Of a stretch of DNA of 48,260 nt, positions 15,001 through 21,000 are shown in pieces (position 1 is the stretch's first letter; each line of letters begins with the position of its first letter). Source of the DNA: Candidatus Latescibacterota bacterium. GTDB lineage: Bacteria; Latescibacterota; UBA2968; UBA8231. The stretch lies in contig CBDBIJ010000127.1 of assembly GCA_965205655.1 (NCBI GenBank), positions 1-48,260 on the forward strand, written 5' to 3'. The position numbers are program-made.

Positions 15001-18000
15001 TGTGATCGCCCACGTAACGGCAGGTGGCCTTCAGTAAAGTGGGAGAGCCTGAAACCGGAAACTCGAGACGGGTACCGACCGCGACCTTCGGCTTATCCTG
15101 GAGCGGTGCTTGGACTAGCTTCTGGGGTGCCTGCGGTGATCGGGCCTGTGTCTCCCGCTGCAAACGCAGCAGCTGGGTGCCGCACAGGTGCGATGAGGGC
15201 GAGGGCTCATCCCCGATCGCAATCGCAACCCATCCGGTCGTAGACAGCAGTCCGGCGATGAGGCATGTCGCAGCTCGTGACACTTGACGATGCACCCACT
15301 CGCGCGCCGGCGCCATCACCAACGTGTCGTGAGAAAGATCCCGAGCGCTCGCGGATTCGGCCCGGCGCCAACCTCCACGGTGGTGGAGCGCAACCGCACG
15401 GTCTCCTCATCACCTCCATCCTCGTTTCGGCGCAACTGCGAGCCGCCGCGGGCAGCGTGGATGGCTGCGATGAGATGGTTTGCCAGGAGGAGCCCGGTGG
15501 CGAAGACCGCCTGGCGGTCCGCCGTCTGCGCCGAGTTGCGCAGCTCTCTGTAGCGTTGGCGAGAGCCCTCGCTGTCCCACTCCCAGAAGAATTGGGCGCT
15601 CGTCGGATAGAGCTCAGCGTCCGCACCGTCCGAGACGAGGGCGAGCCTGTTGTGATCGCTGCGGCTGGCGTAGAATCCCAGATCGTCGAAGTACTGGCGA
15701 TCCTTGTGGGAAGGTGCTGCGCCAGCGCGCGCTGCAGCATGGGTCCGATAGGTATCGCCGCGGATGTCGGCCACGTGCCGCAGACCGAAGTAGCTCGCCC
15801 ACAGTCCGGCTTCGGCCACGGCGAAGCGCGCGGCGCTGCGGTGTTGGCCGAGGTGGCGCTGCCCCCACCCGGGGATGAGGAGGGAGTACCAGAACGCTCT
15901 GGCGGCCGCTTCGGTCTGAATTGGCGCCAGGATGAGCAGGGAACAAAAGACCGGCGTCCAGCGGAGACAAGGGCGGGAGTGCGAGCGGCCCGAGCGTGTG
16001 GACGAAGACCCAGGCACTAGTAGAATGTACGATAGGCGACGAACATAGGTGTGCCAGCGAATCCGTGCTCAGGCAGCACGAAGGCGAAACGAGTTCGGCT
16101 CATCCCGTTCGCCTGCGCCCCGCCTTCTGGAGTTGCCGCTCGCGCCGCCCGAGCGGCGTCGATGGCACTCAGGACGTGGTTTACGAGTATGAGCCCGGCG
16201 ATGTTCGTGGCGCGCTTGAGATGCTTGTTGCTGTCGTTGCGGCGGTCCTCGTAGGCGATTCTCAATTCGGAGTGGAAGTTCTCGACCGAATCGATCTCAC
16301 CGGATTGAACCGCGTTTCCCAGGCTGTCCCTCACATCGCTCCAGCCGGAGATAAACTGGTCGTATTTTCCGATCAGCTCGTAGTACTGTTGCTTCTCACC
16401 ACTCGGGCAGTCGGCAAGATCGAGACCCGCCTGCCCAGCATAGGTGCTGCACGGAAAGCTGTGCGTGATCGATGAGTGACGAGAGATCGTCGAGGTGCGC
16501 CATTCCACGTAATCGAGGGGTTTCCAGTGTTCATCGGCGGTGGCGCGGAACGTATCCTCGATGTCATTGCCCTTGCCGTTCCAGCTGGTCCACAACGTCC
16601 AGGCCGCCAGCTCCAGTCCGAAGAAGAGCGCCGCTCGTTTTTTCGCTCCAGCGTAAAACTCACCTGCTCCCGGCAGGAGGGCGGAGTACAACAGGGCTCG
16701 CCGAGGGGACTTTGCCTTCCCCTCGTCAGACGACGGTGCTACATCTGCCCCGGCCTGCCGATCCGCTTGCGCCAGTAGTGGCTGTGCCGCCGAAATCCCT
16801 TTGAACAGACGCGGCAGCGGACTCATCACGAGCTGAATTCCATTGGCGTCCACGTCTCCCATCCCCGCGGTTCGAGGCGTGCCCGCTCCCGCTCCAATGT
16901 CGAGTAGCTCCTCCACTGCCGCATCCTGGGCAAGACCCGCGTCCGCGAGGAGCGCCGTTGCGAGAGCGATTGCCAACAATTGAAATGAAATCCGTCCCAT
17001 CGAGCGATTGCCTTCCTGTCGCGGCTCGGTAGTTTCACGAGCCTGTCTCACTACAAGTATCCGAACAGTACCGTGAGATAAAACTTCCACGGATTGCGAT
17101 CCTCCACCTCATCGAGGCCGTATGCGAGGTCCGCCTGCACCCGGGTCGGCATACTGTAATACGAGATCATGTCGAGACGCAACTGAGTGCCGACATCTCG
17201 CAGCATTCCAGTGCGTCCGTAGAATCGATCGGGATCGTCGAAGTCGCCGTCCCATGCTTTGCCGACATCGCCGTACACGGCCCCGTACAGCTTGTCGACG
17301 TAGAGATGAGCGAAGCGGCGCCGCGTATCGGCGAGCAGCGGAAATCTGAATGTGCCGTTCGCCATGAAAGCCTTGCGCCCTTCCATACTGTAGAAGGTGT
17401 ACCCTCGCATGAAGTTGAGGCCGCCGAGGTGGTAGTCGAAGAAGTCGCTTACCAGATCCTCATCGTCGACCTTGTCGCTCGCGATCCAGCCCCCGAACAG
17501 CCTGAGGCCGAGGGCGGTATCGCGTGGCAGTCCGACGTATTCCCTCCAGTCGACGGTGAACTGGTTGTAGAACAGATGGACATACTCCTCCTGGAGGAAA
17601 GAGACATTGCCCTCGTCGAAGCCCTCGAGGAAGTAGTTGAACATGCGGTCGTATTGCAGTAGTAGCCGCCGGCCGCGGGGACTGATATCGCGGTCACGGC
17701 GTCGGGATAGCACCTCGAGGCGATAGATCAGTCCCAGACCGAAGCCCTGTAGATAGGTATAGCCAAAGGGGCGCTGCTTGGCTCGCCGAAAGCCGGGCTG
17801 GCCGTCCTGTCTCGTTTCGAAGAAATCCCACTCGATACTGGCGTCATAGCGATCGTAGGTCAGCGCCAGCTCCAGATCGGCGTAACGGCCGAGCTTGCCG
17901 CGGGCCCCGGTGCGCACCTCGTTGAGACTGAAGTTCATGCCGGTGACGATTCCGGTGCGGGCCGCCGAGCTGTCTCCCCTCGATGTGTGACGCTTCTGGT

Positions 18001-21000
18001 TGTAGAATTCGAGAAACACCGTCGGACGCCAGCGCCGGTAGTCGTAGAGCGCGAACAGATCCCTGTCACCGTTTGCCGGAGCCAGGGCGGCGCCAACCAG
18101 GACGCTCTGCTTCATCAGAACGTCCGAAGAGGCCGCGTACACTCCGGCTTTGAGGCGACCTTCGTCTACGACTAGGCGAGGCAGCACGAGGGTGCGCAGA
18201 ATATCCACGCCATAAGGCCTCGAAGGCGACGTTGTACGGACGCCGATATCGGCGGAGGCCGATGACTGTCCGATCGAAGCCAGCTCGACGAGAGCGGAGC
18301 CGCCGATCTGCGACGTCGATCCTGGCTCCGACACGGGCTCTACACTACAATGCCAGCCGCCGCTCTCGTCCGCGTCATAGGCGATCGCAATTGCCGAATC
18401 CAGGGCCGCGTCGATCAAGTTGATCCGATATCCATCCGGTCCGAACGCTGCGAATGCCACCGTACCGTCTGGCCCGATCGTCGGCGTGATCGCGCCACCG
18501 ACCACATTGGTGACTTGTTTGACCGATCCCTTCCCCTCAACGTCTACTGAGTAGATGTTGAATATGCCGCTCGCGTCGGAGGCGAACAGGACCTCCTCGC
18601 CGCTGGGGCTCCAGACCGGATCGCGCTCCGTGGCAACAGTGGCGACCAGGGGCCGAACTGCGACGGCGGCGTCAATGTCCGCCATGTCCACGAGGACAAT
18701 GTCGCGCTGGCCACGCCGCGAGATGGAAACTACCAGCCTCCTCCCGTCAGGCGACCACCTGGGCGTGTAGAGCTGAGTGCCGTCGCCGTACTCGGTGAGA
18801 TACCTCACCTCGCTCCCGTCTGCCCTCATGAGGCCGAGGTTGTTGCTTCGCCCTTTGTTGTGTACGAAGCTTATCCATTCCCCGTCCGGAGAGTAAGCCG
18901 GATACATCCCCCTCAGCCCCCGACTCAGGCGACGGAGCTGCGGAGACGTGGAACCGTACCCCCGCAGCGTCGCCGGTGCCGACCACGCCATCCGGGATGC
19001 GAGGCTCCGCTTGGCCTTGCCGGAGTCGTATTCGTAGATATCTGCCTGGCGGGAACCGTAGCGATCCGCCTTGTCTTTGCGCACCCACAGGATCCGCTCA
19101 CCGTCGGCTGACCAGCTGATCGACGACACGACGGGGCTGGCGATCACTTCCTCCTCATCCGTTTCCAGATCGCGCACGATGAGAGCATGCGAGGCGTTGT
19201 GCCGATTTTGCGTGGACAGGTAGGCCAGACGCTTCCCGTCGGGAGAGAAGGAGGGGTGGAGATTCGAAAAGCCGGCCGCATCATCGAGGGGCCGTCCTTC
19301 CCGCAGTTCACCGAGCCCTTCTATCTGCGCCCGGTAGTTCAATCTCATAGAGTCTCTCCACGACTCGTACACCTGCTCGGCCGAGACACCGAGAGCGCTC
19401 TGGAATGCCGACCCGATCGTCATCGACTTCCACTGCGACAGAGATCGACAGATGTCGGCGAGCGCCTCGTCTCCGTAAGTGTGGGCTATGTATCGGACGA
19501 GTCCGTAGCCGTGGTCGTAGACATACTCGTTCCCGAAGCCGCGCTTGCCGAAGACGCCCATTTCGTCTAGAGACAGAAGCTGGTCGTTCACGACGGCCGT
19601 GCGCAGAGCCATATCTCGATGCGAGTCCCAGCGATCGCGCCGCGCAGATTGCACCTGATGCTGCGCGATTCCTTCTGCGAACCACATCGGAGAGACGGTC
19701 GCTACCACCGGATAGGAGGCGATGACGTCCGGGTAACCGATCAGGATGTCGGGACGATTCTGTTCCCTTTGATAACCCAGGTATTGCAGGTAGAGTGCAG
19801 GTACCCGCTGCGATGCCTTGCGGGCGGCACCCAGTGAAATGACGTGGGTGAACTCGTGCGTCACGACATTGCCGAGCCAGTCTGTGGCGCCCCGAAGCTC
19901 GTAGTCGTGATCGAGCGCGCTGGTCCAGATTTCGATCGTGTCCAAATAGAAGAAGGCGGCGCCGTTGGCGTAGTCGTCGTAGTCCTTGAGGATGATGCGG
20001 ATATGGCCGGAGGGCTCATAACCGTAGAGATCGGTGACGGGGCCGTACGCGGCTTCCGCCACCTCGGCCGTGTATGACGCGGCCTCGTCCAGTCCCTGAT
20101 GGAAAAGAATCCGGAAGTGTTCCGTCTCCACCACCTGCCAGTCCAGCTCGGGATGGTTTTGGGCCCCGATCGGCGTCGCTACGCCTGCTGCCACCAGGAG
20201 ACAGACCGGTAGAGTGGCCTTCACTTGCTCACCGCCATCTTGACCACCACGTGCGACCGGTCGCCGGCGCCCGCGTCGGCCTCGAGCTGACAGAGATACA
20301 GGCCGCTGGCGTACTTCTCAGTGGGCCAGCTGATTTCGTTCTCGTCCGGCACTTGGAGCTCGTCCCGCCCCACGCGGATGCGATCGAGGCGCTCCCCGAG
20401 GACGTCGAAAACTTCCAGCTCGACGTCGGCGAGCCGGCTCAGAAAGAATCTCAAGTGGGCCCGGTCGTCCTCACCGCCTACCGGATTCGGATAGCAGTAG
20501 GCCAGCTCCGGTGGCAATAGATCGGCCGCGATCGGTGCGGTTGGACCAGCGGGGAGCGTCGGATGCGAAAAGCGTCCCGCTGCACTCCGACCGCGCTGCC
20601 CCCATGCCACGGTGCCCCCGCCGTACGCAGATGAGAGAGCGGTGGGCTCCCACAGGTAGAGCTCGTTTCCAGCGACGGCGGCGATCTCGAGGTGGCCGTC
20701 CCCATCGAGATCGCCAGCCACTGGGTCGTAGGAGATCGGCGTTTCGGTGAGAAGCGGAAAACCCTCGAGCGGCACACCAGTATCATCGAACCCGTATAAG
20801 CCCCGCGTCGACCCAGTGAAGATCTCCTGACGGCCATCCCCGTCCAGGTCTGCGAGCACGGGAGCGAAGCGCAGCTCCCTGACATCGCGCACGACTGGAA
20901 AGCCAGCCTGAATCAGGCCGTTCGAGCGAATCGCGTGAACTCCATTCGATGACGCAGCGACGATCTCCAGGAATCCATCGCCGTCGAGATCGCCCAGAAT

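Follow-up and report, generated by a model that had tools for sequence, protein, structure and literature searches.

A WD40-like Omp85 protein with a predicted zinc peptidase domain and a conserved link to type IX secretion genes

The gene g03529 of a Latescibacterota bacterium encodes a POTRA-less Omp85 protein that carries a predicted gluzincin domain, a TolB-like propeller and a 16-strand barrel. It was found in a 48,260-nt contig stretch (the window). Its restriction to genomes with SprA and its linkage to type IX secretion system (T9SS) genes make it a candidate T9SS component. Our tentative reading, rated together with its mechanistic steps at a little short of an even chance, is that the protein would be an outer-membrane-anchored, periplasm-facing zinc peptidase that serves the sorting arm (PorU/PorV) of the T9SS in FCB lineages with SprA and no detectable GldLMN. 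It may process T9SS cargo. The features are listed in Table 1.

Table 1. Features of g03529 and neighbouring genes (positions in the window)
Feature	Position	Strand	Remarks
g03529, WD40-like Omp85 protein, long-spacer (putative plug) clade	17051..20224	-	1057 aa, open 1057-codon frame
Probable cleaved signal peptide, residues 1-21	20162..20224	-	I-G-A end before conserved QNHP; read from sequence
Predicted gluzincin peptidase domain, residues 22-303	19316..20161	-	model pLDDT 88.9; fold matches
Predicted HExxH zinc motif, H123-E124-H127	19844..19858	-	invariant in 26- and 78-sequence alignments
Clade-specific beta-hairpin, residues 143-174, between HExxH and E184	19703..19798	-	hairpin in both models
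Predicted third zinc ligand, E184	19673-19675	-	invariant in 26- and 78-sequence alignments
TolB-like beta-propeller, about residues 304-611	18392..19315	-	TolB fold match; PD40
Variable low-confidence linker, residues 618-662	18239..18373	-	pLDDT <50; length varies among aligned sequences
16-strand Omp85 barrel, residues 679-1057	17054..18190	-	model; BamA/TamA fold matches
Loop-6 motif MRGY, residues 939-942	17399-17410	-	in barrel
Pseudo-M6 protease, FG-GAP propeller, T9SS-type tail	20221..23259	-	HExxH replaced by AKFFG
PorV-family barrel	23369..24634	-	probable ATG at 24421
T9SS sortase PorU	24489..28514	-	NF033707 649 bits, cut-off 420
DUF5683-like protein, first copy	16017..17090	-	probable ATG at 17000; PF18935 E 2e-4, below cut-off
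DUF5683-like protein, second, related copy	15316..16017	-	profiles of the two copies cross-match, 56 and 70 bits

The three-part, POTRA-less architecture given in the preliminary description was confirmed by Pfam, NCBIfam and a structure model. Pfam gave PD40 (E 2e-22), Omp85 (PF01103) at residues 884-1018 with 28 bits (cut-off 24) and Peptidase_MA_2 at residues 179-293 (E 2e-6, below the family cut-off); the NCBIfam TolB propeller model matched with E 1e-34. None of the six Pfam matches of g03529 (E 0.01) is to a POTRA family, and the gap between propeller and barrel, where POTRA domains would sit, holds only the disordered linker. The whole-protein prediction (pLDDT 87.0, pTM 0.88) ends in 16 C-terminal strands. 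In fold comparison the propeller aligned with TolB (Z 26.4, rmsd 2.5, 239 aligned), the barrel with BamA 8xnb (Z 21.6, rmsd 4.0, 311 aligned) and TamA 8us1 (Z 19.9), and the peptidase domain with lugdulysin (Z 16.3, rmsd 4.1, 228 aligned), followed by M1 aminopeptidases and collagenases (Z 12-14), with tricorn factor F3 also among the nearest folds. A PDB sequence search recovered the propeller and gave no match for the barrel or the gluzincin domain, a PDB search with the peptidase profile gave none at all, and the matches listed by Foldseek for the whole model were propeller-type proteins only. The GTG start overlaps the stop codon of the upstream gene. The probable signal peptide is not of the lipoprotein type, as a lipobox-like pattern is absent in 383 full-length members of the clade.

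The architecture had been put forward as new to the Omp85 superfamily. It is not: Heinz & Lithgow 2014 (PMC4104836) defined it as the "WD40-like" Omp85 subfamily, with a column for the "best aminopeptidase hit" in their Table S3. The templates in that column (4ar1, 4ar9, 3qnf, 4fgm and tricorn factor F3, 1z1w) also match the g03529 model. None of the Table S3 accessions is among the members listed in the search that gave the Ignavibacterium album orthologue. "WD40 and peptidase domains" are mentioned in PMC11358297, and a 2024 paper still terms the subfamily uncharacterised.

The invariance claimed earlier for T122-H123-E124-x-x-H127 holds for H123, E124 and H127, as it does for E184; T122 varies. 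Y236 is invariant too in both alignments, and the catalytic motif was present in 124/124 loci covering it (121 by pattern, three seen in the alignment). The predicted zinc site is complete and conserved, and sequence and model together assign the domain to the gluzincin metallopeptidases (clan MA). The spacer between HExxH and the glutamate is fixed at 52-53 residues in the clade of g03529 (53 in g03529 itself), as opposed to 24 in the two paralogues g01454 and g01422. Both paralogues were found where previously placed and with the same three Pfam families, although they are only 22% identical to g03529 and have neither the hairpin nor the T9SS module. A T9SS link was rejected for both, since no PorV or pseudo-M6 match was found within 20 kb around either; a weak 38-bit match to the PorU profile lies near the paralogue on contig C41. 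In a tree built without the hairpin columns, 76 of the 77 long-spacer proteins group together (node support 0.88, with two short-spacer intruders inside).

As previously described, g03529 forms one gene string with porU and a PorV-family gene, both upstream on the same strand. The PorV-family product matches PF19572 (54.6 bits) and NF033709 (246 bits, cut-off 90) and falls short of the strict PorV cut-off (NF033710, 154 bits against 250). The pseudo-M6 product matches NF052323 with 316 bits, below the cut-off of 600, has FG-GAP repeats and reaches Por_Secre_tail at E 0.004 only. In Atlas features the first DUF5683-like copy comes at 0.96 to clusters in which 16-30% of the members have DUF5683. 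The T9SS link had been said to rest on gene order in one genome; it is stronger here, with the module of g03529 conserved across phyla. Of the 141 long-spacer loci whose upstream flank is long enough, drawn from many FCB phyla, 136 have the porV-family and pseudo-M6 genes directly upstream; DUF5683 lies downstream in 137 of 145. No short-spacer locus (0/7) has the upstream pair or DUF5683. Five long-spacer loci are outside the module, and in five genomes with an unlinked barrel gene a pseudo-M6-like and a PorV-like gene still lie side by side, the barrel gene being elsewhere. Tests for interprotein coevolution, which paired the barrel or the N-terminal part with pseudo-M6, DUF5683 or PorV (some 165 pairs, an effective number of 110), were uninformative: three of five pairings did not rise above shuffled level, most of the signal with PorV stemmed from a single column (S393) that we take for a lineage artefact, and one DUF5683 pair reached z 11.3 against 8.5 shuffled. 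A complex prediction for the barrel with the N-terminal half of pseudo-M6 gave no answer (score 0.01, mark 0.32). In the literature search nothing was noticed among the papers listed that links WD40-like Omp85 proteins to the T9SS.

The phylogenetic profile was taken over a sample of 121 genomes. The long-spacer clade is present in 53, exactly the 53 that carry the pseudo-M6 gene, with one strong match per genome; one genome (G065) retains both genes even though they are about 860 kb apart. SprA is found in 53/53 carriers, and the clade occurs in 53 of the 96 SprA-positive genomes and in none of the 25 without SprA. Because the genomes are related, this profile may reflect a few lineage-level losses. 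The cultured Ignavibacterium album has an orthologue of g03529, found by name, and carriers also occur among the Balneolaceae. Three of the Table S3 accessions, those prefixed I0A, we take to be from this species. Pseudo-M6 and the barrel were also considered as a replacement of PorZ-PorQ, which was rejected as 36 of the 53 carriers also have PorZ.

The exact co-occurrence with pseudo-M6, whereas porU adjoins only 75 of 125 loci, would suit a nutrient route in which pseudo-M6 acts as a lid that binds peptides at the surface, the barrel lets them in through a channel gated by the plug and the gluzincin domain trims what is imported, with porV linked only through the display of pseudo-M6. The M1 aminopeptidases and tricorn factor F3 among the nearest folds also fit. 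We consider this reading unlikely: a single strong match in each genome and a gene order that hardly changes across many phyla suggest a housekeeping role rather than feeding, and no TonB-dependent or ABC gene was noticed in the module in a non-systematic look.

Coevolution within the protein points to a peptidase docked on the periplasmic mouth of the barrel. I129 of the peptidase couples to K705, H973 and M1025, all in short turns on one barrel face. Hairpin-barrel couplings are I162-R745, Y145-Y1022, R140-R677, E154-G941 and Y171-S1021. The base of the hairpin is coupled to 677 and 1021-1027, its tip to 745 and 941; four coupled pairs reappeared in 8/8 subsamples, and the row-shuffle control removes relatedness as well and is therefore a weak control. 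The hairpin appears to be a plug of the barrel lumen. Two further couplings, L146-L684 and V173-L1050, touch positions that look lipid-facing and would suit the lateral seam rather than the lumen. The strand 1-16 coupling, which bears on a lateral gate, is modest (L679-L1053, z 5.0). The earlier reading of an outer-membrane-anchored periplasmic protease gains from these couplings to periplasmic turns and from the complete, conserved catalytic set, with the topology inferred from coevolution.

In the T9SS-sorting reading that we prefer, the peptidase would dock on the periplasmic turns and the hairpin would rise through the barrel as far as the lid formed by loops 3 and 6 and so keep the barrel closed at rest. 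Surface pseudo-M6 would capture secretion leftovers (cleaved C-terminal signals or mis-sorted cargo) and present them at the lid. Because the hairpin is wired between zinc ligands, its movement would unblock the pore and at the same time switch the active site, and the peptide would be cut on entry into the periplasm. Against this reading stand the 14 of 67 SprA-positive, GldN-negative genomes without the clade, the long-spacer loci outside the module, the genomes in which the pseudo-M6-like and PorV-like genes stay paired away from the barrel gene, the score of the PorV neighbour under the strict cut-off, the relatedness of the genomes and the two couplings that would suit the seam.

A further reading is a dedicated insertase or assembly factor, resembling a fusion of BamA and BamB with the protease BepA (the default idea of Heinz & Lithgow), that would fold or proof-read T9SS barrels; the hairpin would then be an integral latch of the BamP kind. 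The RGY motif of loop 6 is retained and coupled to strand 13 as in BamA (M939-D986), some hairpin couplings fit the seam, and a BamP loop at the seam holds BamA inhibited (PMC12611786). This appears distinctly unlikely, as g03529 has no POTRA, a separate BamA-like gene is present in the genome (contig C58, 175 bits), the hairpin is covalently fixed between zinc ligands, and the partner with the best co-occurrence is a cargo of the cell surface rather than a barrel.

A wider claim, which we regard as improbable, is that most FCB phyla have a T9SS form without GldLMN and that the porV / pseudo-M6 / plugged peptidase-Omp85 / DUF5683 module would be a working part of it; the self-plugged barrel, with its plug wired to the zinc site, would release or clear cargo instead of a motor-driven step. 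Quite improbable too is that the module substitutes for the motor itself and drives or resets cargo release from SprA without GldKLMN, for instance through proteolysis that renders export irreversible. The clade is found in 0/29 GldN-positive genomes and in 53 of 67 SprA-positive, GldN-negative ones; profile searches found no GldN in 41 genomes of the bacterium's own group or in five carriers, and neither GldL nor GldM in four carriers, while the control genome scored. However, the other 14 of the 67 genomes are without the clade, which is thus not required there, divergent motors may evade the profiles (which covered GldL, GldM and GldN), a peptidase is ill suited to supply pulling force, and the exclusion with GldN may be one split between lineages. 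An autotransporter-like surface protease, with the barrel exporting a peptidase-propeller passenger, resembles the original type Vd model and has a long, flexible linker, but we give it hardly any weight since the couplings of the peptidase are to periplasmic turns, the model of the entire protein is rigid (pTM 0.88) and the passenger of PlpD proved periplasmic (PMC11116518).

Through this clade, the WD40-like Omp85 subfamily, without function since 2014, gains a concrete context among T9SS sorting genes. The clade offers a best candidate partner (pseudo-M6) as well as a catalytic residue and a gate that can both be tested, and its carriers include a cultured species. It also raises the question of what powers secretion where SprA, PorU and PorV are present and GldLMN is not detectable.

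Compared with known systems, g03529 shares with the WD40-like Omp85 proteins, as described in the sections of PMC4104836 drawn on here, the lack of POTRA, the TolB-like propeller, the BamA/TamA-type barrel and the N-terminal aminopeptidase-like domain; those sections treat the propeller only (the BamA-BamB fusion idea) and are silent on a zinc site, on a clade with a hairpin and on a genomic link to the T9SS. The T9SS attachment complex PorU-PorV / PorZ-PorQ (PMC12398890) is alike in that porU and a porV-family gene are in the string and a T9SS-tailed surface protein lies beside the barrel, while the part of that paper used here names no Omp85 protein or zinc peptidase in the complex. BamA with BamP (PMC12611786) and BepA combines a loop-6 RGY Omp85 barrel, a loop inside the barrel and a zinc protease at Omp85; there, BamP and the M48 protease BepA are proteins of their own, and BamA has POTRA domains. 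By Pfam and the model, g03529 lacks the periplasmic POTRA of BamA/TamA insertases, and by Pfam and fold matches it does not have the patatin domain plus one POTRA of type Vd (patatin-like Omp85). Loops that enter an Omp85 barrel have precedents in BamP (PMC12611786) and in the PlpD lid (PMC11116518). PlpD (PMC11116518) likewise has a periplasmic enzyme on an Omp85 barrel with an enzyme loop reaching into it; it is a homodimeric patatin lipase with one POTRA, whereas g03529 combines a predicted gluzincin domain with a propeller, lacks POTRA and has a conserved hairpin that is longer.

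We tentatively read g03529, which joins a peptidase, a TolB-like propeller and an Omp85 barrel, as a periplasmic peptidase gated by a plug, with a putative role in clearing or recycling polypeptide from type IX secretion (T9SS) sorting, and give this reading slightly less than an even chance. A protease-like surface protein in which HExxH is replaced (pseudo-M6), the putative partner, would feed polypeptide to g03529. A beta-hairpin plug, formed by the spacer between HExxH and the glutamate ligand E184, may gate the barrel, and the periplasmic peptidase would clear or recycle polypeptide from T9SS sorting as its putative substrate. 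The anatomy of g03529, its gene module and its genome profile were computed.

Coordinates of g03529 and of other features in the window and on other contigs (C-numbers) of the same genome
Feature	Location	Strand	Description
Fibronectin protein	2366-5884	-	1172 residues, at least 5 fibronectin type III domains (Pfam)
PorV-like gene	8774-9775	+	second, distant PorV-like (UPF0164) gene
Cargo gene	13586-15322	-	T9SS-type, intact HExxH, FlgD-like tail; last gene of the string
DUF5683-like genes	15316-17090	-	two related genes; first with hydrophobic helices and strongly conserved YYELIGKY..F..GW motif
g03529	17051-20224	-	1057-residue product
Transposase-type genes	42366-45315	-	two, near contig end: Mutator family; integrase core with helix-turn-helix
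Paralogue g01454	C42:11643-14867
Paralogue g01422	C41:19180-22065
SprA	C68:35069-41281
PorU-like gene	C121:43277-46785		second; apparently split over three frames

Pfam matches in g03529 comprise PD40 repeats, Omp85 at 884-1018 (28 bits, cut-off 24) and Peptidase_MA_2 at E 2e-6, under the family cut-off; POTRA is absent among them. The structure model (pLDDT 87.0, pTM 0.88, alignment of 78 sequences) shows a helical peptidase, the propeller, a disordered linker and 16 strands, in that order. Fold comparison of the model matched the propeller to TolB (Z 26.4, rmsd 2.5, 239 aligned) and the barrel to BamA (Z 21.6, rmsd 4.0, 311 aligned). The separately folded peptidase domain matched lugdulysin (Z 16.3) and M1 aminopeptidases and collagenases (Z 12-14). 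H123, E124, H127, E184 and Y236 do not vary in either alignment of relatives, and the catalytic motif was found in 124/124 loci covering the site (121 by pattern and three by eye). The two paralogues named in the preliminary description are real; both keep HExxH and the Glu, at 22% sequence identity to g03529. The genome has nine Omp85-domain matches, two of which (on C22 and C12) carry an internal stop. That g03529 acts in peptide feeding is unlikely.

Nearly all proteins of the g03529 clade have a spacer of 52-53 residues, versus 24 in the paralogues. Three scans of one species-genome collection, one contributing the best 80 of 565 relatives, gave 197 loci after removal of three same-contig repeats: 183 have a long spacer (at least 50 residues), nine a short one, and five, truncated or frameshifted, lack the motif in the scored frame. 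Among loci of this set (best 80 of 565 relatives included) with enough flank, PorV-family and pseudo-M6 genes lie upstream on the same strand in 136/141 long-spacer loci, a DUF5683-like gene downstream in 137/145 and porU nearby in 75/125; short-spacer loci have neither the gene pair (0/7) nor a DUF5683-like gene (0/7). The T9SS link, at first drawn from gene order in one genome, is conserved. Forty additional loci, chosen for adjacency of the two genes, all have porV, pseudo-M6, a 52-residue spacer and DUF5683. Groups named in the record titles of module loci include Latescibacterota, KSB1, Zixibacteria, Ignavibacteria, Kryptonia, Caldithrix, Marinimicrobia, Cloacimonadota and Balneolaceae. 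Five long-spacer loci (L089, L103, L123, L158 and L174) lie outside it, and neither PorV nor pseudo-M6 was found within 20 kb of either paralogue. A role as a specialised assembly factor is somewhat less probable than one in peptide feeding.

The loci differ in detail. DUF5683-like genes number one in Ignavibacteria and Marinimicrobia and two in KSB1 and Latescibacterota. In Latescibacterota, and in that group only, most loci have an HExxH cargo gene with FlgD-like tail after the module; in several loci of the group (L005, L006, L011, L014, L050) the barrel gene is separated from the first DUF5683 gene by variable insertions of 1-3 kb. In L187, L188 and L190 the module is split into many frames, probably by sequencing errors. 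Our own profile found 11 PorV-like frames in the window's genome.

The genome-level profile draws on one sample of 121 genomes, all of the phylum to which an Ignavibacteria locus belongs. In 53/121 genomes the clade peptidase domain had a single match at E <1e-60 (next matches >1e-17), and the pseudo-M6 family, at E 1e-45, occurs in exactly the same 53. About 860 kb separates the two genes in one genome (G065), and three others have them on separate contigs. SprA was found in 96/121 genomes and GldN in 29/121. The clade is present in 53/67 SprA-positive genomes without GldN, in 0/29 with GldN and in 0/25 without SprA, a pattern that may reflect a few lineage-level events, given that the sampled genomes are unlabelled and related to one another. 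SprA is present in the window's genome (84% complete); searches there for GldL, GldM and GldN found none of them, no motor gene was recognised in the frames neighbouring SprA, and GldN was not found in 40 relatives. With GldL and GldM as queries, one control genome and 0/4 clade carriers scored; divergent motor proteins could have gone undetected. That g03529 substitutes for the motor is improbable. The module was also considered as a PorZ stand-in and rejected, since PorZ occurs in 36/53 carriers.

The coevolution analysis took 561 motif-selected sequences (effective 261) and was confined to columns 116-197 and 672-1057. Of the 45 highest-ranking pairs, 32 link strand to strand, 28 of them within one strand or between neighbouring ones; all seven inter-domain pairs involve the segment 139-175, which makes up 45% of the N-terminal columns. 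The hairpin (strands 143-151 and 165-174 in the models) couples at its base to the turn 1021-1027 and to 677; partners of its tip are R745 at the distal end of strand 5 (z 11.9, rank 3 of all pairs) and the loop-6 residue G941. Residue I129 is coupled to three short turns, all on the face where the hairpin base lies. The couplings I162-R745, R140-R677, E154-G941 and E154-G1036 recurred in 8/8 subsamples and Y145-Y1022 in six. When the model was aligned by fold with the barrels of TamA and Deinococcus BamA, the alignments likewise began at model residues 118-121. In standard Omp85 topology the short turns face the periplasm; we therefore infer a periplasmic peptidase with the hairpin running up the barrel lumen. 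Against a lumen plug, L146-L684 and V173-L1050 involve positions that are apparently lipid-facing and would suit a lateral seam. A surface autotransporter is very improbable. For the plug-gated reading, PlpD (PMC11116518) and BamP (PMC12611786) are precedents for a loop inside an Omp85 barrel.

A literature search, mostly outside subscription journals, found no paper linking WD40-like/peptidase Omp85 proteins to T9SS, and none was seen in passages of PMC12611786 and PMC12398890; reviews in subscription journals may say more. The architecture, initially taken as new to the Omp85 superfamily, is already in print: Heinz & Lithgow (2014; PMC4104836) describe a 'WD40-like' subfamily without POTRA whose propeller is nearest TolB. 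Later papers mention Omp85 'WD40 and peptidase domains' (PMC11358297) and term the subfamily not well characterised (PMC11116518). By our count, Table S3 of PMC4104836 holds 95 WD40-like members, about 81 of them matching aminopeptidase- or collagenase-type templates (1z5h, 4kxd, 4ar1, 4ar9, 3qnf, 4fgm). A search by name turned up an orthologue in Ignavibacterium album, but among the members listed none bore a Table S3 accession. Fold searches with g03529 also retrieved 4ar1, 4ar9, 3qnf and 4fgm, and the F3 protein is common to both, in our searches as 1z1w. By domain layout and shared fold templates, g03529 is a known yet unstudied architecture.
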